A program made the translations under genes and the position numbers. The notes below the pieces were generated by a model, which saw only the letters and a list, made by a program, of their open reading frames with translations, made no database searches and was not told the origin of the DNA. DNA of 64,000 nt from an uncultured virus (IMG/VR IMGVR_UViG_3300043427_002205) (Duplodnaviria; Heunggongvirae; Uroviricota; Caudoviricetes), in the IMG/VR virus record IMGVR_UViG_3300043427_002205; one strand, 5' to 3'. Numbering within the stretch: position 1 is the stretch's first letter; each line of letters begins with the position of its first letter. This document shows positions 598 to 35,855 of this stretch, piece by piece.

Positions 598-1035
598 TTA
601 CCTCAAAAATAATTCTTTTTCTGCTGTGCGCCGTCTAGTTAACCCAGGTAAAACTTTACCTTTTGCTTTATTCCATCTAGAAAATTCTTCAGCGGCACCC
701 AAAAAATCTTTTGCATTTATCTTTTTTAGTAGAGTGGACTTTTTAAAATTTTCAGCGCCCAAATTATAAACAAAAGATACTAAAGCATCAAACTGAGTTT
801 GAGTTAATTCAACTTTAACTAAAAAATTTATAGAATCCTCAAATCGTTTAAGGTCTTGTTCTAATAAAACATTAGCCTCGTCTACAGTAACTTTATGGCC
901 GCTATTCACTGGATTTCCATTAATTTTGGTTGTACCAAATCCTATTGTTAGAACTCCAGCGGGACACAAATATGGGAAAGCACTAAAGCCTTCGTACATT
1001 TTTATTAAGTTTTTTCCATCTTTTCCGGTTTTCAT
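598..1035 (-). CDS. Endolysin, GH24 phage lysozyme
   Basis: YEGF...YLCPAGVLTIGFGTT, QFDALVSFVYNLG, GLTRRRTAEKELF. Confidence 0.95.
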   Translation of the reverse strand: MKTGKDGKNLIKMYEGFSAFPYLCPAGVLTIGFGTTKINGNPVNSGHKVTVDEANVLLEQDLKRFEDSINFLVKVELTQTQFDALVSFVYNLGAENFKKSTLLKKINAKDFLGAAEEFSRWNKAKGKVLPGLTRRRTAEKELFLR

Positions 1036-1042
1036 ATAACAG

Positions 1043-1050
1043 TATTTATA
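1043..1050 (-). promoter_or_regulatory. T4-type late promoter (TATAAATA) for lysozyme
   Basis: Exact TATAAATA 7 nt upstream of the ATG at 1035. Confidence 0.75.
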
Positions 1051-1744
1051 ACGCCTCTTTATTTACCACTATGGTATGATATTTGCCCAAATTTAATAAG
1101 TTAAAACTAAACGCCGAATTTACTGGATTATAAGACTCGTCACATATTGATGCATTACAAAAATTTACATTCGGCAGCGCATCGCTAATATAATGCCCAT
1201 TTCCATCGTGTATGTGACCGAACACATGTAAAAATAGGTCTTTCAATTCACGCACTTTATTTAGTAAGTCAATACAACCCACATGATTATTATTAACCAT
1301 GTCACCTATTCCAAAAGGAGGCCCATGTGTTATTAAAACTTGAGTGTCTGCTGGTATATTATTCCAGACCGCTTGTATTTTTTCGCCTCGGTCTAAATTA
1401 AATGCCCAATTAAAAAATGTTGGCTGCCACGGAGATCCGTAAAATTTAATTCCCTCAAAAATAAATTCAGAGTCTTCTAAATACTCAACCTTATCATTAA
1501 ATGTAGATTTCAACACTTCGATGGCTAAAGTTTTTTGCTTCATTAAGCACCAGTCGTGATTTCCCGCAATTAGAAATGCTTTTTTAAATGCGCTTTCATA
1601 CTTTTTTAGCCACTTTACAAAATTTTCAAATTGCCAGATTTCTCCGCTAGAGCATACATCTCCAGATATTATTAATACATCGCATTCGGGTATAGTTAAT
1701 CTATTCTGTTTGCAGTGTGTATCTGAGATGCAAAGTATTTTCAT
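1046..1744 (-). CDS. Calcineurin-like metallophosphoesterase
   Basis: ISDTH, SGD, AGNHD, ITHGPP, FGHIH motifs. Confidence 0.92.
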   Translation of the reverse strand: MKILCISDTHCKQNRLTIPECDVLIISGDVCSSGEIWQFENFVKWLKKYESAFKKAFLIAGNHDWCLMKQKTLAIEVLKSTFNDKVEYLEDSEFIFEGIKFYGSPWQPTFFNWAFNLDRGEKIQAVWNNIPADTQVLITHGPPFGIGDMVNNNHVGCIDLLNKVRELKDLFLHVFGHIHDGNGHYISDALPNVNFCNASICDESYNPVNSAFSFNLLNLGKYHTIVVNKEAL

Positions 1745-2271
1745 GATTGAGTTCCGGTTGAGCCGAATCCACCAACTCGATTTGACTTTTGTGTTGGTTC
1801 AATGTCAGTTTCAATAAGAGTTGCTCTACTATCGACAACAAGTTCAGCCTGACATATTCTAGTTCCGTGTGTGAGTATTTGGTCAAAAGAACTGATGTTA
1901 TGAATTGGAACAAAAACCTCATCAAAGTAATCTTCGTCAATAACGCCCTCACAATTAACTAGTGTGAGTCCATTCTTAATTGAAATTCCACTTCTGGGGT
2001 GAAGTCTTATAGAACAATTTATTGGAATTCTAAATTTTAAACCAGTTGGCACCAGCACCCTAGCCATTGAAGGAATTGTAAGTCTACCGTTTTCTATAAA
2101 CAACTCTGAAACATCCTCAAATCTTTTATCTCCAAACTGTTTTGGCACAAACGCTTTTATTAGAGAGTCTGAGGTCAAGCAAGCCGATAGATCAAAACAA
2201 GCTGAGTATGTTGTTGCATACTTAGGAATAATCGCCTCTGGCTTAGACTTAAAAATGTATAATGTATTCAT
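1741..2271 (-). CDS. dut: Trimeric dUTPase
   Basis: SACFDL, PRSG, GVIDEDY, RICQ, RVGGFGSTG motifs. Confidence 0.95.
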   Translation of the reverse strand: MNTLYIFKSKPEAIIPKYATTYSACFDLSACLTSDSLIKAFVPKQFGDKRFEDVSELFIENGRLTIPSMARVLVPTGLKFRIPINCSIRLHPRSGISIKNGLTLVNCEGVIDEDYFDEVFVPIHNISSFDQILTHGTRICQAELVVDSRATLIETDIEPTQKSNRVGGFGSTGTQS

Positions 2272-2286
2272 AATATAATCACTTAA

Positions 2287-2709
2287 CTATTTTTTATTTC
2301 TACTATTGCCAATATTATATTTTGCTTCTAACTTCCAGTTAACTTTATCTTTAAACGGAACTATTTGTATAGAAGATATTGGGCAAATAGGAGACTCGCA
2401 CTTATGCTTATCAACAATCGATATTAATTTCCATTCACTTAGAACATTAACTATTGTATTTCTTCTAGCTATATCATCTTGAGTAAAATCTGTTGGTTTT
2501 CCGTCTAACTTAAACAGCTCTTTGAAATGAACTATGAAATATCTACTCTCTTTAGTATCTTTATCACGTTTATGTAGAATGTGGCAAGATTGAAATAGAA
2601 TTCTTTCTCTTTTAGATGATACGCCTATTCTAGTTAATGTTTCTTTAACTTTCAAAAAATCTTCTGGCGTAGCCAATTTAATTTCTACCAATGAATCAAT
2701 AGCGCTCAT
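2287..2709 (-). CDS. regA: Translational repressor RegA
   Basis: DFLKVKETLTRIG, LFQSCHILHK, YFIVHFKELF.LDG, ARRNTI. Confidence 0.97.
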   Translation of the reverse strand: MSAIDSLVEIKLATPEDFLKVKETLTRIGVSSKRERILFQSCHILHKRDKDTKESRYFIVHFKELFKLDGKPTDFTQDDIARRNTIVNVLSEWKLISIVDKHKCESPICPISSIQIVPFKDKVNWKLEAKYNIGNSRNKK

Positions 2710-2722
2710 ATATTACATAACT

Positions 2723-2926
2723 CTATTTTCGCCCCCCAAAAACATTAAATAAAAATGTAAGTATATTACTTTTTGGTTTGGGCAACACAATCTTATTGAT
2801 GTCTTTTAAAATAGAAATACAATCTTTTATATTTTGATTGTTATCTTCTATTAAAATTTCTATTTGCTTAAGAGTTCTTATCAACTCTTTAGCATATTCG
2901 TTATATTTATCTTCCATTTTTACCAC
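2723..2926 (-). CDS. Hypothetical protein
   Basis: Fills the gap between gp62 and regA in operon orientation. Confidence 0.55.
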   Translation of the reverse strand: MVKMEDKYNEYAKELIRTLKQIEILIEDNNQNIKDCISILKDINKIVLPKPKSNILTFLFNVFGGRK

Positions 2927-3305
2927 CTTTATTGAGTTTACTCTTCATATACTCAATATCACTCTCGGAAAACAATCTTAAAAGCTCTTTGGCTTTTTTA
3001 TCACTACAGCCATGATATTCAGCGATGACATCTATTAAGTCTTGCTTGGTATGTTTTATGTATTTAAAAAACCGCTTATTCTTCTTAATTGCATGAAAGT
3101 AGTAATCATATTGCATGTCTTTAGGAAGATGCGCATTGCAATTCATCTCTTGAGCATACATTATAGTGTCTATACTCATAGACAACCACCGATTTACCAT
3201 GTATGGATTATATTGAGATATGGCATCTTCGTTAATAGTGCCGGTTTTTGTATATGATATATCATTTAGTATATCAAATATTTTTAGGTCAGAATCTTTT
3301 GACAC
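2907..3305 (-). CDS. gp62: Clamp loader small subunit
   Basis: YNPYMVNRWLS, EMN, QYDYY, KRFFKY; synteny 45-44-62-regA. Confidence 0.9.
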   Translation of the reverse strand: MSKDSDLKIFDILNDISYTKTGTINEDAISQYNPYMVNRWLSMSIDTIMYAQEMNCNAHLPKDMQYDYYFHAIKKNKRFFKYIKHTKQDLIDVIAEYHGCSDKKAKELLRLFSESDIEYMKSKLNKGGKNGR

Positions 3306-4255
3306 TACTTAAACTCCGAGGTTAAGCCCAATTCTATTAAACATGCCATTAGATTTATTTCAGTATCAGCGACTAAAGTATTCATATACTTTGCGATAAT
3401 AAGAATTGCATTTGGTATTGAAGATGGAGTCAAATTATCTTTTAAATTATCATATAACTTTCTATATATAGTGGTGGGATCATTTTCTAAATTTTCAACC
3501 ACCCACTCTCTAACCTCTTGAAACTTCTTATCTTTCATGCTTCGATACAATTTGGTTATATTTACATCGCCAGCAAAAGATAATATACCCTCGTCTATTT
3601 TGCCATACTGTTGACTGAATGCCTGAAGTTCGTTTAATAGTCGCCTAAAGTCTGGAAAAAATTTAACTACAATAGAAGCAAGAGCCTTTCCGTCATACTC
3701 AACGCCCTCGGCCTGAAGTATAGCAACAACTCTCTTATAGCACTGAGCTATCAGCTCTTGCTTCTCATCTTTAGGTATTCTAAACTCTTTTATTGAACAC
3801 CTAGATTGAAGTGGCTCAATAATTTTATTTTTAAAATTGCAAGTGAGAATAAATGAGCAGTTTGCGGAGAATTCTTCCATAACACCACGAAGTGCTGGCT
3901 GAAAGCTCTGTGGATTTAAGTAGTCGGCCTCATCTAGTATAATTACCTTTCTTTTACCATTAAAAGAAAGGCCAGAGGCAAACTGCTTAACCGTAGTTCT
4001 CAGGGTATCAATGTTTCTATCGTCAGATGCATTGATTACGATATTTGAATATTCAAGCTCTTCACATAAGGCTTTTGCTACCGTGGTTTTACCTATACCC
4101 GCACTACCGCATAGCAGCATGTGTGGTAACTTTCCACCATTTACTATACCCAAAAAGGTGTCTTTTAAATTTTTGGGCAAAATGCACTCATCAACCTTAC
4201 GTGGACGATACTTTTCCATCCAGACAATATGTTTTCTATTTTCACTAATTTGCAT
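3305..4255 (-). CDS. gp44: Clamp loader large subunit (RFC-like AAA+)
   Basis: WMEKYRP, GSAGIGKTT, ILDEAD, PLQSRC. Start reassigned to ATG at 4255 (MQISEN); the track ORF starts at 4318. Confidence 0.95.
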   Translation of the reverse strand: MQISENRKHIVWMEKYRPRKVDECILPKNLKDTFLGIVNGGKLPHMLLCGSAGIGKTTVAKALCEELEYSNIVINASDDRNIDTLRTTVKQFASGLSFNGKRKVIILDEADYLNPQSFQPALRGVMEEFSANCSFILTCNFKNKIIEPLQSRCSIKEFRIPKDEKQELIAQCYKRVVAILQAEGVEYDGKALASIVVKFFPDFRRLLNELQAFSQQYGKIDEGILSFAGDVNITKLYRSMKDKKFQEVREWVVENLENDPTTIYRKLYDNLKDNLTPSSIPNAILIIAKYMNTLVADTEINLMACLIELGLTSEFK

Positions 4256-30960: not shown

Positions 30961-31018
30961 GTCTATCTCCTATTATAATTAAGAATACCGTTTATATTGG
31001 TAGTTTTCTTTTGCTTTA

Positions 31019-31026
31019 TATTTATA
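31019..31026 (-). promoter_or_regulatory. Late promoter TATAAATA for gp18
   Basis: Exact motif upstream of AGGAG SD. Confidence 0.75.
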
Positions 31027-31074
31027 AAAAAATGTTTCTTATGAAATGTCAGAACTATACGTGTTCTGTATTTA

Positions 31075-33969
31075 TCACTTATATTTTTGCCAGAAATATT
31101 TATCTAAGTTATAGTAATCTGTAGTTTCGTCGGAAACTTCTTCCCAAACATTTCCTTCAGAATCTACGGTACGTTCGGGCTCATATGAATCATTTATGTA
31201 TCCGAAGGGCAAAACTTCTTCCTGCATGTTTTCAATTTTTTCTTCGGCTATCTTGGCCCTAACATTTATATTGGTAATTTCTTTAAACGGTGCTTGTGTA
31301 GTTAACCACGAAAACATAACTAGGGTCATGACCAAATCGTCATGACATCCTGGCTCGGCAGAATATGTCGTATAATTTGAGACAAATGAGGTTAGCTCAG
31401 TTATAATATTATAATCTTGAACTAATAGCTTATTAGTTTCTATAAGCTCTTTTAAATTTGCACACCCAATTGATTTTATTTGAGTGGTCATTTTTATGCC
31501 TAATTTTGCATTTTTTCTAAACCCAGCCGAAATTCTTTGTCCACCTCGACCCATATTGGTTGTTGCAAATACATTTTCATATTCTAAATCTTTATGTAAA
31601 AGATCTACTACTTGAGAGCCGATGCTATTACTCTCAATTAAACAATGCGCAGAATTATATCTCAATGCAGTATTAAATATAACTGATGGAAAAACCATCG
31701 GAGATATTTTATTATTGTAGTATTTCGCAACAATTTTATACGGCACTTCAGATACATCAACAACAGTAAATGCTGAGTAGTCTAAATTTTGACCCTCTGA
31801 CGTATCAACTGAGATAACATATATATGATTTGGCTTAGGGTCTTCATACACATCTAAGCTGTCTGCTATTTTTTTAATTGGGTCAATCCAAGTTAAAGTT
31901 TTTAACTTTGTTCCTGAAATTAAAGTGTTGGTCGATCCCAAGAATTCTGTGTTAAACTCTTGGTCAAACTTTTCTTTACCTAGCTGCTTTATTTGATCTT
32001 CAGCCCATCGCTGGTCTCTGCCAGGAACAACCGACCAATGTGCCTCTATGGGTTTATATAAGTTTCTGTTATTGATAGCATCTGTCCAGAATCTATAAAA
32101 TAAATTCATTCCATTTGGAGTAGACACCATTATAACTTTAGTCGTATTACCCGAAGAAATTGTTGGATATACTGAAGTGATGAATTCTTCGGCGATGTTT
32201 TGTGGCACGAAGGCAAATTCATCTAAAAATATGCACTGGTGAACTAAAAAGTTATTACAATAATAACTATGAGTATCTTCAACTTCTAATAGATCATACA
32301 CATCAATTTTTTTATGGCATTCTATGTTGGTGACTTCATAAAAATAACCATCAAAATTTAATATGCTTCTACCCAAACAATCTTTAGCTTCAATATAACC
32401 AATGTCAGTAAATAGCATGTGCTCTGAGGTGCACACAATTTCGCCAGCATCACTAGTTAATTTTATCGTGTTTTGTTTTTTGGTTTTCTTTATTCCGCAA
32501 AAGTCTTTGTATCCTTTTTCTGTGAGAACTTCGATTTTTTTAAATTCTCTTTGTGGTCTTCTGTTAAAGGTTTGCCAAGTTTTGCCTGACGCATTTTTTC
32601 TAGAACTTCTTGAGAGTATATTCCTTTCTTCCCTTTGTTCCAAGGAACACGACCCTTTGCAGCGTCGCTCATTCTTGTTCTCGACTCTTCTGAGCGTTTC
32701 ATGCCACGATGCGTCTCTGCCATTTTTCGTATCTTTTCCGGATTCTTGTTGATTTTTGCAACATGTTCTGGAGATTTCTTTAGTCCAGTTAAGCCCCTCG
32801 ATATATTCTCTCGATGCCTCTGTGTCTTGGGAATTCCTCTGAGTCTTCCCAAGTTGGCCTTGGATATTTTTTCCTTTGCTGTTTGAGATAGAGTTTTTCC
32901 TAATTGAATTTCTCTTAAACAATCTCGCAAACGAGCAGATTCTCGACTGCTTACCCTGTGGTATTGTCTCGTATGAGTCATCATGGCATAGGCCCACATC
33001 ATACTTGTTTTGTACTCTTCGGTTACAAATTTTGTTAAAAGTCTGTGACAAATAATGTGATGTCTTGTTGGCAAAGCAACTAAATTTTCTAAAGAATCTG
33101 AGCCGCCCATGCTTCTTGGAATCATATGATGCTTCTCTAATCTCACATTCAGATGCGAGTAGTCTTTTGTCACTATTTTCATGTATAAGTTTTTGTATTT
33201 GTTCTCTATGAACATATTGAACCTCATTACCATAATCTCGTCTTTCATATTTAGACGAATTGGCAATTACTTTATACAATTCTTTTAGAGAAATTTCAAA
33301 CTCTTCACCATCGATTTTAATCTTGGTGATGGAGTCTCCTGATACACAATTAAATGTATTACCACGAGCAGAAGATGATGCGGTGGCTGCCGCAATAACT
33401 TTGGAACCATTTTCTAATTCAATGGAACCTTTGTTCCAAATTTGAACACCTTGCTGCATCCACATAGGTATGTGCTCATATGCAAGCCTGAGCTTTGACA
33501 ATATATCTCTGGCTGTTGATGCCTTATTTGCCAATATTGCTATGTTTTGCATCGGGCCGAACAATACTGTCCAGAGAATGTATGCTATGGTTACGGTTGA
33601 GTTGTGGCTTAAAATATTGTTGGTATAGAATCTATGGTCATTTGATTCTACCGTAAGATCAAACATATTTGATGACGAGTCTAGTTTTTTCACAGACTTA
33701 ATGACTTCTGCGCCATCTTTAGTCTGTATTTTTGTTAGTCCGGCAATGCAATCTTTTAGATATATTTCATCTAAGTTAGAATCAAATAATATGTGAGTAT
33801 CGGCTGCAATTAAAGATTTGCCACTATCGGTTACAACTTCCCACTTATCATACTCTATTGTTTTATGAATGTGGGTAAGAGGTTGCCATCCAGAATCAGT
33901 TAGAATCTCGAAATCACCAGTCAATTCTATCGTATCAATAAATTTTCTTTCTACTTGTTCAGAAAGCAT
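31075..33969 (-). CDS. gp17: Terminase large subunit, C-terminal precursor: IntC of split intein 1, 84-aa extein, contiguous intein 2, 386-aa extein
   Basis: Exteins STVT..., ILANKASTAR, WNKGSIELENGS, IFLDEFAF (Walker B), STPNG.N, nuclease VDTSEG..DYS and HDDLVM. Start ATG 33969 or GTG 33975. Confidence 0.95.
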   Translation of the reverse strand: MLSEQVERKFIDTIELTGDFEILTDSGWQPLTHIHKTIEYDKWEVVTDSGKSLIAADTHILFDSNLDEIYLKDCIAGLTKIQTKDGAEVIKSVKKLDSSSNMFDLTVESNDHRFYTNNILSHNSTVTIAYILWTVLFGPMQNIAILANKASTARDILSKLRLAYEHIPMWMQQGVQIWNKGSIELENGSKVIAAATASSSARGNTFNCVSGDSITKIKIDGEEFEISLKELYKVIANSSKYERRDYGNEVQYVHREQIQKLIHENSDKRLLASECEIREASYDSKKHGRLRFFRKFSCFANKTSHYLSQTFNKICNRRVQNKYDVGLCHDDSYETIPQGKQSRICSFARLFKRNSIRKNSISNSKGKNIQGQLGKTQRNSQDTEASREYIEGLNWTKEISRTCCKNQQESGKDTKNGRDASWHETLRRVENKNERRCKGSCSLEQREERNILSRSSRKNASGKTWQTFNRRPQREFKKIEVLTEKGYKDFCGIKKTKKQNTIKLTSDAGEIVCTSEHMLFTDIGYIEAKDCLGRSILNFDGYFYEVTNIECHKKIDVYDLLEVEDTHSYYCNNFLVHQCIFLDEFAFVPQNIAEEFITSVYPTISSGNTTKVIMVSTPNGMNLFYRFWTDAINNRNLYKPIEAHWSVVPGRDQRWAEDQIKQLGKEKFDQEFNTEFLGSTNTLISGTKLKTLTWIDPIKKIADSLDVYEDPKPNHIYVISVDTSEGQNLDYSAFTVVDVSEVPYKIVAKYYNNKISPMVFPSVIFNTALRYNSAHCLIESNSIGSQVVDLLHKDLEYENVFATTNMGRGGQRISAGFRKNAKLGIKMTTQIKSIGCANLKELIETNKLLVQDYNIITELTSFVSNYTTYSAEPGCHDDLVMTLVMFSWLTTQAPFKEITNINVRAKIAEEKIENMQEEVLPFGYINDSYEPERTVDSEGNVWEEVSDETTDYYNLDKYFWQKYK
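32490..33215 (-). CDS. HNH homing endonuclease with NUMOD3 repeats, nested in the +1 frame inside intein 2
   Basis: MFIENKY start; EKHHMIPRSMGGSDSLENLVALPTRHHIICHRLL (HNH); NUMOD3-like repeats GKTLSQTAKEKISKA, GMKRSEESRTRMS, GKPLTEDHKENLK; SD GAGGT 5 nt before ATG 33215. Confidence 0.88.
   Translation of the reverse strand: MFIENKYKNLYMKIVTKDYSHLNVRLEKHHMIPRSMGGSDSLENLVALPTRHHIICHRLLTKFVTEEYKTSMMWAYAMMTHTRQYHRVSSRESARLRDCLREIQLGKTLSQTAKEKISKANLGRLRGIPKTQRHRENISRGLTGLKKSPEHVAKINKNPEKIRKMAETHRGMKRSEESRTRMSDAAKGRVPWNKGKKGIYSQEVLEKMRQAKLGKPLTEDHKENLKKSKFSQKKDTKTFAE
33248..33255 (-). promoter_or_regulatory. Late promoter variant (TCTAAATA) inside intein 2, upstream of the nested HNH gene
   Basis: CTAAATA 33 nt before ATG 33215; the same variant precedes gp3 and gp20. 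Confidence 0.55.
33601..33969 (-). mobile_element. C-terminal fragment (IntC, about 123 aa) of atypically split intein 1
   Basis: FEILTDSGW, AADTH (block B), MFDLTV (block F), LSHN|STVT (block G). Confidence 0.92.
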
Positions 33970-34988
33970 AAACACTCATCTATAACTTTTTTTGGATTTT
34001 GTTTGTATTCAGATTCCCAAATTATTAAATAATCATATCCATTATCCATCGCAAACTTTTGTTTGATTAAATCAATATTCCATTTATCTTTAGCCGACAT
34101 ATTTAATCTGGCGTGAAAATAGTTGGCATCATATTTTGATGGATTGCAATGCCAGTAATCACCATGATATTCAATTATCTTATTTTTACACATCATGTCA
34201 TATATCCAACTAGAGCCAACTATCGATTGTTGAGTTTTTAAATCGAAATGTTTAGCTAGTATATCTGAAAGTTCTCTTTCAGCTTTAGAGATGCATATGT
34301 CAGGATTCATTTTTTTCTGATTGATTAAAGTTTTTTCTTCTGGACTTTTTGCATCTAACGTGGCTAACCACTTTTCTTGTCTAGCTTTCCAGATTTCAGT
34401 TCCCTTTTCTTGACCAAATTTTTTGACACATTTTTCAAGAGAAAAGGTTGACTGGCGTTTAGACAGCTCTTTTTGTGCATCTTCGTGAGAAAATCCACGC
34501 TTAATATAAAATTCCGTCGTGGTGTTTGTGTTGTGCGACTCCTTACGCTTTTTTGATATTCTCTCATGAATTTTTGCATCTTTACCGTGAATAAATTTTT
34601 CTGAAAATGGTGAATATTTTCCTCCATGCTGATACGCTGGATTCTTATCACCTTTAATTCTTTCAGATTGCTCTTTTAGGTAAGATTCACTTCTTATTGC
34701 AGAATTTGGAAATTTTTCTTTGTACTCATCAATAGTGCAGTGCATCCGCGTGATATGAGATGTCAAGTCATTCGATTTCATTTCACAAAGCTCACACTTA
34801 ACCGCATGGATTAAATTTTTATTTTTTTCGAGTTTGGCAACTCTCATTCTTTCAAGTTGTGCTTGATATAGTTGCTCTGTTCGTTTTTTCCTACATTCAT
34901 CAGAGCAGCAAGCGCTTTTCGTGCTCTTCACAAACTGCTTTGCACAAACTAAGCAATTCTTCAAATTTTGAATCTTTGCAGATTTCAT
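33951..34988 (-). CDS. Free-standing Vsr/PD-(D/E)XK-like homing endonuclease between the split intein halves
   Basis: N-terminal Cys/His zinc motifs (CLVC..CCSDEC, CELC..HITRMH); C-terminal YD...IIEYHGDYWHCNP...D..K...A...GY..LIIWESE; overlaps both intein halves. Confidence 0.88.
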   Translation of the reverse strand: MKSAKIQNLKNCLVCAKQFVKSTKSACCSDECRKKRTEQLYQAQLERMRVAKLEKNKNLIHAVKCELCEMKSNDLTSHITRMHCTIDEYKEKFPNSAIRSESYLKEQSERIKGDKNPAYQHGGKYSPFSEKFIHGKDAKIHERISKKRKESHNTNTTTEFYIKRGFSHEDAQKELSKRQSTFSLEKCVKKFGQEKGTEIWKARQEKWLATLDAKSPEEKTLINQKKMNPDICISKAERELSDILAKHFDLKTQQSIVGSSWIYDMMCKNKIIEYHGDYWHCNPSKYDANYFHARLNMSAKDKWNIDLIKQKFAMDNGYDYLIIWESEYKQNPKKVIDECLCFLNK

Positions 34989-35064
34989 AAAGTTTTCCTA
35001 TTTCTAAAGTTATAATATAAGTTTTTTTGTATCTTATCACAACTTTAGTATTTATGTCAACACA
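34900..35064 (-). mobile_element. N-terminal fragment (IntN, 54 aa) of atypically split intein 1, at Walker A
   Basis: LPRQVGK|CVDINTKVVIR...IGKLYE; matches short TerL-type IntN fragments. Confidence 0.9.
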
Positions 35065-35337
35065 TTTTCCAACCTGGCGCGGAAGTTTCGCTATGGTAAA
35101 TCTATGATCAATATACGACTTCAATAACTCTTTTTGAAAATCATACAAATCAAATGGCACCAAACCTTTATCGACATGAACAATTTTCATGTACTTTTGA
35201 ATGAAGTAGAGTGGATCTTGAGTGCATCTAATTCTCTCTTCTATCTGCTCTCTGGTAAAAACGTACTCAACACCAGGAGCCTTTAAAGTAGGATTGCCTT
35301 TGTATATTCTTATTTGATTTGTTGGTATTGCATTCAT
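34900..35337 (-). CDS. gp17: Terminase large subunit, N-terminal precursor (91-aa extein plus IntN)
   Basis: YKGNPTLK, DPLYFIQKYMKIV, FDLYDFQ, LPRQVGK. Confidence 0.95.
   Translation of the reverse strand: MNAIPTNQIRIYKGNPTLKAPGVEYVFTREQIEERIRCTQDPLYFIQKYMKIVHVDKGLVPFDLYDFQKELLKSYIDHRFTIAKLPRQVGKCVDINTKVVIRYKKTYIITLEIGKLYEICKDSKFEELLSLCKAVCEEHEKRLLL
35049..35056 (-). promoter_or_regulatory. Late promoter (CATAAATA) inside IntN, upstream of the endonuclease
   Basis: Motif about 60 nt upstream of ATG 34988, which has an AGGA SD. Confidence 0.55.
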
Positions 35338-35345
35338 ATTAAAAC

Positions 35346-35855
35346 CTACTCGCCCAACTTCTTCTTAGTCATATTTGCAATGATCTCATCTAATTGTGCG
35401 GTGTTTCCAATGAAAAGATTGTTATTAACAATTTCGCTAGATTCAGATTTTCCCGAATCGCTTTCAATTTTGTTCTTATCTTTATGTATCGTCATTAAGT
35501 CTTTTTGAGCACTAGCGATAGTATTCACCATTAATGAAATTACTTCATATGCTCTCGGATGCTGACTTTGTTGCGCAATATCAACTAGGCTATTAAGAGC
35601 GTCGATTGACCTTTCAGTTATTGTATATAAGTTATTTCTTATATAATTATAATCAGTTTCTAAATGATTTGAGTTTGAATCTATTACAACTAAATCTGCT
35701 TTATGCTTATCTTCAGGTGTTTTTTTAGGCTCTACTTTTATATGCGAGTCTTCACCTTCAACCTCAAGAGTATTTTCAAGAATTTTTTTTAAATCATCTT
35801 CAGTAGCAATAAAATCATTGTCTAAAAATTCATATTTTTTCACCTTATCACTCAT
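35346..35855 (-). CDS. gp16: Terminase small subunit
   Basis: DYNYIRNNLY, AQQSQHPRAYEV, VNNNLFIGNTAQL. Confidence 0.93.
   Translation of the reverse strand: MSDKVKKYEFLDNDFIATEDDLKKILENTLEVEGEDSHIKVEPKKTPEDKHKADLVVIDSNSNHLETDYNYIRNNLYTITERSIDALNSLVDIAQQSQHPRAYEVISLMVNTIASAQKDLMTIHKDKNKIESDSGKSESSEIVNNNLFIGNTAQLDEIIANMTKKKLGE

Follow-up and report, generated by a model that had tools for sequence, protein, structure and literature searches.

The DNA analysed here is a stretch of 64,000 nucleotides (nt) from an uncultured virus (IMG/VR record IMGVR_UViG_3300043427_002205), hereafter called the window. It comes from a freshwater phage, and its minus strand carries a T4-type structural and packaging block of gp15, gp16, the large terminase gene terL (gp17) and the tail sheath. 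Within terL, an open reading frame (ORF) of 966 amino acids (aa; 31075..33975, minus strand) encodes, in this order, the C-terminal fragment (IntC) of a split intein (intein 1), an extein segment, a second intein (intein 2) and the C-extein, which holds the Walker B motif (IFLDE) and the nuclease domain. Intein 2 (32236..33348, minus) spans 1113 nt, or 371 codons, from Cys1 (33348-33346) to a C-terminal His-Gln (32241-32236), and its junctions in the ORF (GNTFN↓C...VHQ↓CIFLDE) lie just before Walker B. The same strand of intein 2, read in the +1 frame, contains a complete homing-endonuclease gene with HNH and NUMOD3 domains (32490..33215, minus; 241 aa and a stop codon; a TTG further upstream, at 33266, is open too). 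An earlier note on this DNA, made from the sequence alone, had placed the intein at 33348-32236 and a complete HNH and NUMOD3 gene at 33215-32490, and ORF translation and Pfam bear out this layout.

The terminase-frame product of intein 2 falls into three parts. The N-terminal Hint part (33199..33348, minus; intein residues 1-50) comprises block A and a beta-hairpin with a conserved ANSSKY...YVH. The C-terminal Hint part (IEVLTEKG...VHQ; 32236..32547, minus), a homologue of the C-fragment in atypically split inteins, includes the TxxH of block B (CTSEH; 32430-32419, minus) as well as blocks F and G (32304-32236, minus), and is followed by the +1 Cys of the C-extein (32233..32235, minus), which is Val in intein-less alleles. 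Between the two Hint parts lies a filler of ~217 residues (32548..33198, minus) that is hydrophilic and modelled at low confidence, and for which Pfam found no family at E<=0.01. The HNH-bearing insert thus separates block A from block B and lies outside the interval from B to F. The earlier note's view that the stretch after block A is free of endonuclease domains in the terminase frame stood, and the position of the insert is now more sharply defined. In a block-conservation alignment of 20 sequences (the window and 19 relatives), the block A Cys (C6) and the Thr and His of TxxH (T312 and H315) were invariant in 20/20, and the penultimate His and the +1 Cys did not vary either.

We modeled a 381-residue query with AlphaFold from a 20-row alignment. 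The model's predicted local distance difference test score (pLDDT) was 85-96 at residues 4-55 and 273-378, and below 50 at residues 56-265 and 267-272; in the N-terminal Hint part it was 85-93 (model residues 11-50) and in the C-terminal part 89-96. The confident flanks form one Hint domain, whose best structural match is the TvoVMA mini-intein (4o1s_B; Z 19.9, root-mean-square deviation 1.9, 152 residues aligned), and all 30 chains found with Z>=8 are inteins or Hint domains. The insert corresponds to model residues 56-272 and block B to residues 312-315, so that the model likewise has the insert upstream of block B. By sequence, the closest solved relative of the IntC is 6dsl_B, 'Consensus engineered intein CatC' (E 1.2e-5). 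Since intein 2 has neither a stop after its N-terminal part (IntN) nor a start before its IntC, it is a contiguous relative of the atypically split inteins rather than a member of that group. By its Hint fold and blocks it appears to be an intein of class-1 type, and we infer that it splices from the essential Walker B junction and from the conservation of its blocks.

The +1 frame encodes a recognizable nuclease. Pfam assigned HNH (22.8 bits; cut-off 21.4) and NUMOD3 (32.1 bits; cut-off 20.4) to the ORF, and in PHROGs the protein matched phrog_655, 'homing endonuclease' (8.8e-24). A tblastn search with the HNH protein found relatives labelled as homing endonucleases in 737 phage records, all at <60% identity, and the sole phmmer match in the PDB was Cas8-HNH (5.6e-4). 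Residues H29, H30, N44, H53 and H57 are invariant in 6/6 HNH sequences, and NUMOD3 exceeds the Pfam cut-off in the window and in loci L002, L004, L007 and L077. In the structural model of the HNH protein, strands 26-30 and 45-49 and helix 50-63 reach a pLDDT of 87-92, and the N-terminal 80 residues 82-92.

In this frame relation, a stop arises in the terminase frame wherever a T-ending HNH codon stands before a codon beginning with AA, AG or GA. The HNH gene has 92 such sites, 61 of them with a T-ending option. T-ending codons occupy 0/61 of these risk sites, compared with 58/119 sites elsewhere (Fisher 6e-14), and the terminase frame has 0 stops across the HNH gene, where 17.3 ± 2.7 were expected (20000 synonymous shuffles, minimum 7). 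The third frame over the HNH region has 29 stops. Seven other window genes, read in the same relative frame, have 32-62 stops and no bias in T-ending codons (p 0.25-1.0), and at intein 1 there are 7 stops in the 37 codons after IntN and 42 in total up to IntC. Between ORF residues 254 and 500, the terminase frame also has no in-frame ATG; the only TTG or GTG codons are at 309, 327, 352 and 445. Thus the codon rule that the earlier note had described, its reading of the terminase frame as free of stops and of a restart Met, and its count of 7 stops at intein 1 were all reproduced, and the synonymous shuffling that it had proposed came out as the rule predicts.

The same avoidance was found at six further loci (L002, L008, L003, L004, L009 and L007), where the +1 HNH ORF is intact. 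Against an expectation of 10.7-15.9 stops, each has none in the terminase frame, and 0 of 44-55 risk sites hold a T-ending codon. This comparison left out L001 and L005, which are identical to the window, L011, whose HNH protein is the same as that of L002, L006, where the 5' end of the HNH gene is cut, and L010, which begins inside the IntC. The bias is present in four DNA lineages besides the window, five in total.

The filler has a hydrophobic fraction of 0.23, compared with 0.41 in the exteins. Extra selection for a hydrophilic filler was considered and rejected: observed values were 0.23-0.25 and those of the shuffles 0.25-0.27, and the fraction of shuffles with values as low was 0.04-0.20. 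We treat the hydrophilicity of the filler as a by-product of the frame relation.

Relatives of intein 2 were found in several ways. One viral contig is identical over 6300 bases and may be the same material as the window. Independently of it, a 5 kb contig from a different study aligns over 32015-33600, differing by 84 substitutions and no gap, which answers the concern, raised by the earlier note, that the open frame might be an assembly artefact. A word-indexed search with the intein region returned 20 proteins, 17 of which span 100% of the 371 residues, filler included, at 29-94% identity; the note had named homologues with stops in the terminase frame as a result that would tell against it, and these 17/20 instead read through the insert. 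A degenerate block F pattern retrieved 6 viral and 4 metagenome loci, and 337 matches at E<=1e-3 came from scanning 1.84 billion cluster representatives without a profile; among the 150 of these that were listed, 9 cover the query in one stretch from residue 1 to at least 367. A megablast of the locus against phage records gave no match, and intein 2 was found in 0 of 2704 records of cultured phages, none of which spans at least 80% of the query. IntC matches in the Prochlorococcus phages P-HM1, P-HM2 and MED4-213 (query from residue 293) were rejected as alignment run-on, gp17 being an ordinary 560-aa gene there.

Substitutions between lineages follow the HNH frame. Differences peak at HNH codon position 3 in 10/10 lineage pairs (71/53/116 at the three positions for the window and L002). 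Over all pairs, identity is 0.42-0.93 in the HNH frame and 0.24-0.88 in the terminase frame; divergent pairs retain 0.42-0.57 in the HNH frame as against 0.24-0.33 in the terminase frame. As differences fall mostly on the third position of HNH codons, selection acts on the HNH as a protein, while the terminase frame is only kept open: purifying selection maintains the HNH, and the sole constraint on the filler is that it remain free of stops.

The HNH gene is preceded by candidate start signals of its own. GAGGT, which resembles a Shine-Dalgarno (SD) motif, lies at 33221..33225 (minus) and ends 5 bases before the HNH ATG. Across the lineages, GAGG recurs in L004, and L002 and L003 have a G-run instead. 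A putative late promoter, TCTAAATA (33248..33255, minus), lies 39 bases upstream of the ATG. Its CTAAATA occurs at -39 to -45 in 4/5 lineages; this motif overlaps the conserved NSSKY codons of the terminase frame, and conservation as a promoter is thus inseparable from conservation of the codons. CTAAATA also occurs at -34 to -38 of 3 other ORFs in the window, and NTAAATA lies no more than 80 bases upstream of 18/53 ORFs.

Alleles of several kinds coexist at this one terL site: empty, nested, HNH-deleted and truly split. In the empty alleles (P0043, P0047, P0059 and P0060) the site reads GNTFN-V-IFLDE. One of them, P0043, is a near-identical terL without intein 2, with an N piece identical at 207/207 positions, a C piece with 5 mismatches in 386, and Val at +1; a contig in run X1 also skips 32233-33353, with 8 other letters between. 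The body of the HNH gene has been lost in frame, with its start region kept, in P0015 (compared with P0008), P0016 (with P0014) and P0021 (with P0009), and the IntC of each deleted form is identical or nearly so to that of its partner. Finally, eight proteins (P0031, P0033-P0035 and P0039-P0042) are true splits that start with Met at IEVLT and run ...HN↓C(I/L)(F/Y)LDEFAFV.

At three of the split loci (L013, 1843-3501; L014, 1008-2612; L077, 619-3501), TerL(N)-IntN continues in frame into an endonuclease of the GIY-YIG/NUMOD3 type; there is no stop between them, and the stop of the endonuclease overlaps the ATG of the IntC. SegE_GIY-YIG exceeds the Pfam cut-off in L013 and falls below it in L014 and L077, and NUMOD3 is above its cut-off in all three. 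The arrangement suggests that a terminase-IntN-endonuclease fusion may be the form in which the N-fragment of these relatives is produced. In a quick tree of IntC-like segments (187 rows, 107 columns, Shimodaira-Hasegawa-like approximate likelihood ratio test (SH-aLRT) support), the window belongs to a supported set of 19 rows (SH-aLRT 98), made up of 15 read-through sequences, two classed as deleted, the cut deleted P0021, and P0136. Most deep forks of the tree are open, and for that reason we claim no direction between the split and the read-through states.

Locus L077, a viral contig, has a further nested gene at another site. Whereas its Walker B intein is split and carries the in-frame GIY-YIG fusion, the P-loop intein of the same gene is contiguous and has its own +1-frame HNH/NUMOD3 gene (1016-1873, plus strand, in ORF 619-3501), with 0 host-frame stops (15.0 expected) and T-ending codons at 0/73 risk sites, compared with 60/128 others.

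We consider it likely that the locus forms one composite, mobile element, in which an intein of class-1 type in the terminase ATPase was colonized by an HNH/NUMOD3 gene of the free-standing type. The nuclease gene, read from the same strand in the +1 frame, occupies the loop beyond block A and the short hairpin, upstream of block B. Ribosomes translating terL meet no stop in the HNH region, T-ending HNH codons being excluded before AA, AG or GA, and the terminase precursor would carry a hydrophilic, probably disordered filler of ~217 residues. The two Hint segments would fold around this filler and the whole 371-residue intein would be excised, joining GNTFN to CIFLDE. The HNH protein would be translated separately from the ATG at 33215, with GAGGT upstream and possibly from an internal late promoter. 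It would then cut intein-less alleles (GNTFN-V-IFLDE) in mixed infections, and repair would copy the intein and the nuclease together. An HNH frameshift would break the terminase as well, so only in-frame deletions can remove the HNH, and deletions of this kind are seen. The core proposal of the earlier note, in which the terminase would be read through an alternative-frame filler and the HNH expressed as a separate gene, fits all the tests run. It is supported by stop avoidance in five lineages, substitutions at wobble positions, a Hint fold built from the flanks and the lack of a restart codon.

Several observations weigh against this interpretation. The final residue of intein 2 is Gln rather than the canonical Asn, as it is in 16/19 relatives; three distant relatives (P0017-P0019) end in His-Asn, and L007 ends in Lys-Asn. 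Inteins that end in Gln are able to splice. The low pLDDT of the filler is not proof of disorder, and a Foldseek search of the HNH model against the PDB gave no match at E<=0.001, the best being 0.09, with HNH domains in the weak top rows. L007 has no SD-like motif. The earlier note had credited the HNH gene with its own SD and late promoter; both GAGGT and CTAAATA are present, but the late promoter stands only as a motif, with TCTAAATA showing no enrichment in the window (3 matches, 6.5 expected). Production of the precursor, splicing, translation of the HNH and DNA cleavage are steps that we infer from sequence.

If the HNH were instead a dead passenger, intein 2 would be a mini-intein with a long tolerated filler, and its +1 ORF would simply not have decayed yet. 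The in-frame HNH deletions in P0015, P0016 and P0021, with terL genes that look intact, fit this account, and selection on the terminase would purge HNH frameshifts as a side effect and so slow the decay. Nonsense and missense changes would not be purged in this way, yet the ORF is intact in 5/5 lineages and at the second site in L077. The invariant catalytic residues, the concentration of changes at HNH codon position 3 and an HNH-frame identity about twice that of the terminase frame at the 42-57% divergence levels also speak for a maintained protein, and we regard a dead passenger as unlikely. A different account keeps the nuclease active and makes the intein split at the level of expression: the N-fragment would end early, by drop-off or by a frameshift that gives TerL(N)-IntN-HNH, IntC-terL would be started internally, and the two would splice in trans. 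Relatives at the same site are indeed truly split, with an endonuclease fused in frame to IntN and an IntC that starts M-IEVLT (L013, L014 and L077), and the IntC is homologous to the CatC fragment. Such a scheme would have no need of a ~240-codon open terminase frame, yet this frame is kept by a strong codon bias in every lineage; nor is there an ATG, any start codon within 35 codons of the IntC, or a terminase-frame stop. We give this account a very low probability.

Two further explanations would remove the dual coding altogether. Two compensating assembly or sequencing indels around an in-frame HNH domain could produce the observed frames, and in-frame HNH inteins are known, according to the accessible part of a recent preprint (10.1101/2025.01.02.630785); the two runs with identical contigs may, moreover, be the window's own source. 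Against this stand the other-study contig, with its 84 substitutions and 0 gaps, and 17 proteins from other assemblies that keep the same frame at 29-94% identity; a codon bias, besides, cannot come from an indel. An artefact, a reading already refuted by these data, retains next to no probability. Removal at the RNA level would make the insert a group I or group II intron with an intron-encoded HNH. T4-like phages have group I introns with endonuclease genes, which counts in favor of this idea. So does the label 'intron-encoded' on the nested HNH in NC_019446. In 31000-35500, however, Rfam gave no family at E<=1, and the element has a Hint fold along with the intein blocks A, B, F and G. Its length is a multiple of three and the host frame across it is kept open, neither of which an intron needs. 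We think an intron highly improbable.

Beyond the composite element itself, we tentatively suggest that the atypically split terminase inteins, from whose lineage the engineered Cat intein comes, have in this family their living contiguous counterpart, with dual coding coming first and splits, in-frame fusions or deletions following; we rate this as possible, though short of probable. Free-standing endonuclease genes would invade a non-canonical loop of a mini-intein, and the first viable outcome would be obligate dual coding by codon choice. Nested, split, in-frame-fused and in-frame-deleted states are all found at this terL site.

An out-of-frame endonuclease gene in an intein is an already known design, and the impression in the earlier note that the architecture was undescribed does not hold, as brucellaphage and actinophage cases are in print. 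The available text of Tevdoradze et al. (PMC4422536) reports a brucellaphage terL intein with an out-of-frame HNH, and the nested HNH is annotated in the record of brucellaphage Tb (NC_019446). Like the window, brucellaphages Tb and Pr (Perisivirus) have a terL intein with a complete same-strand HNH in the +1 frame ((1671-848) mod 3 = 1) and an open host frame. In contrast to the window HNH, which lies upstream of block B, the HNH of Tb coincides with terL residues 275-504; it follows block B (TGNH) and lies in the canonical endonuclease region. The brucellaphage HNH is also Cys-rich, of another type and without significant similarity to the window HNH (BLASTP E 0.06), and its phages are small podoviruses, whereas the window phage is T4-like.

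In actinophages, the accessible sections of Gosselin, Arsenault and Gogarten (10.1101/2025.01.02.630785) describe inteins with an endonuclease VII-like gene in frame 3, and others with antisense LAGLIDADG or VSR-like genes, and propose that free-standing endonuclease genes invade inteins. As worded in those sections, the out-of-frame gene is 'within the HEN region', whereas the window gene lies upstream of block B. The nuclease family and the frame differ as well, and the hosts of the window type are uncultured T4-like aquatic phages. Those sections describe no codon-level test of stop avoidance of the kind given here for the window. A related case without an intein is the ShiLan-type out-of-frame HNH in a mycobacteriophage DNA methylase (Arsenault et al., 2025; PMC11855218). 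As far as the available text of that paper goes, it shares with the window an HNH hidden in another frame and a host frame without stops across the insert; unlike the window, it lacks a splicing domain, which leaves the filler in the host protein; a ribosome-binding site is not detectable, and the start codon is GTG.

In its position the window gene compares with the atypically split terminase inteins. One of these, a split intein of the gp17 terminase described by Dassa et al. (2009; PMC2677866), breaks after motif N1, and its C part of 122 residues has every N motif but N1. This intein and the consensus 'Cat' (PDB 6DSL) share with the window the host gene and a homologous IntC, and from that description their break point is the window's insertion point, after motif N1 and before block B. 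They consist of two polypeptides, with a stop and a restart, whereas the window has a single open frame. AceL-TerL is another atypically split terminase intein. The window HNH itself resembles the free-standing HNH/NUMOD3 endonucleases of T4-like phages (phrog_655) in family and domain order, but these sit between genes, whereas the window HNH lies wholly inside a coding region and is tied to its reading frame. Full-text searches of the literature turned up no description of a gene nested where atypical splits occur, and none of a nested intein gene in T4-like phages. The novelty lies in the place of nesting, with an HNH/NUMOD3 gene at the non-canonical position of the 'atypical split' in the terL intein of a T4-like phage, and in a full allelic series that connects the contiguous with the atypically split forms.

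The locus provides a clean and statistically strong natural case of obligate dual coding by a selfish gene and an essential host gene under a simple codon rule. It indicates that an endonuclease gene can occupy a second site in an intein; all intein endonuclease domains are said, in the accessible part of one source, to insert at one conserved site (PMC6801210). The atypically split inteins used in protein engineering are now tied to a contiguous natural relative, and the series of empty, nested, deleted and split alleles at one site is material for testing models of split-intein origin. If the family is indeed their living counterpart, frame-locking to an essential gene would shield the nuclease from decay by indels and extend the homing cycle. 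Gene callers give only the long ORF, and nested nucleases are therefore invisible in annotations.

The remainder of the terL locus is also interrupted. The gene is fragmented on the minus strand into a 145-aa N-fragment (35337-34900), which has a short IntN at its end, following the P-loop (LPRQVGK↓C), an intervening 345-aa gene (34988-33951), which overlaps both of its neighbours, and the 966-aa ORF, which starts with the long IntC of intein 1 (...LSHN↓STVT). Pfam places Terminase_6N at residues 582-692 of this ORF and Terminase_6C at residues 721-887, and the C-extein is ~50% identical to the terL of cyanophages and of one Pelagibacter myophage. Intein 1, at the P-loop site (LPRQVGK↓C...SHN↓S; 33951-35337, minus), is truly and atypically split, with an IntN of ~28 and an IntC of ~125 residues. 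For the 345-aa gene inside it, the single match is phrog_22677 (5.2e-12; function unknown), and Pfam gives nothing above cut-off; ATAAATA lies at -67 in its upstream region.

A third terL insertion site is present in P0003, P0007, P0010 and P0011 (alignment columns ~795-1000), after QEF(G/E/N)C↓V..., followed by a segment that bears GIY-YIG (PF01541, precomputed, in P0003 and P0007). Some relatives therefore have three mobile inserts in one terminase gene. Over a conserved part of the extein (IELENGSK...; window 33364-33485), contig depth rises from ~20 to 300-356 in runs X1 and X3, with many loose ends, and this stretch is probably common to many related phages in the same samples.

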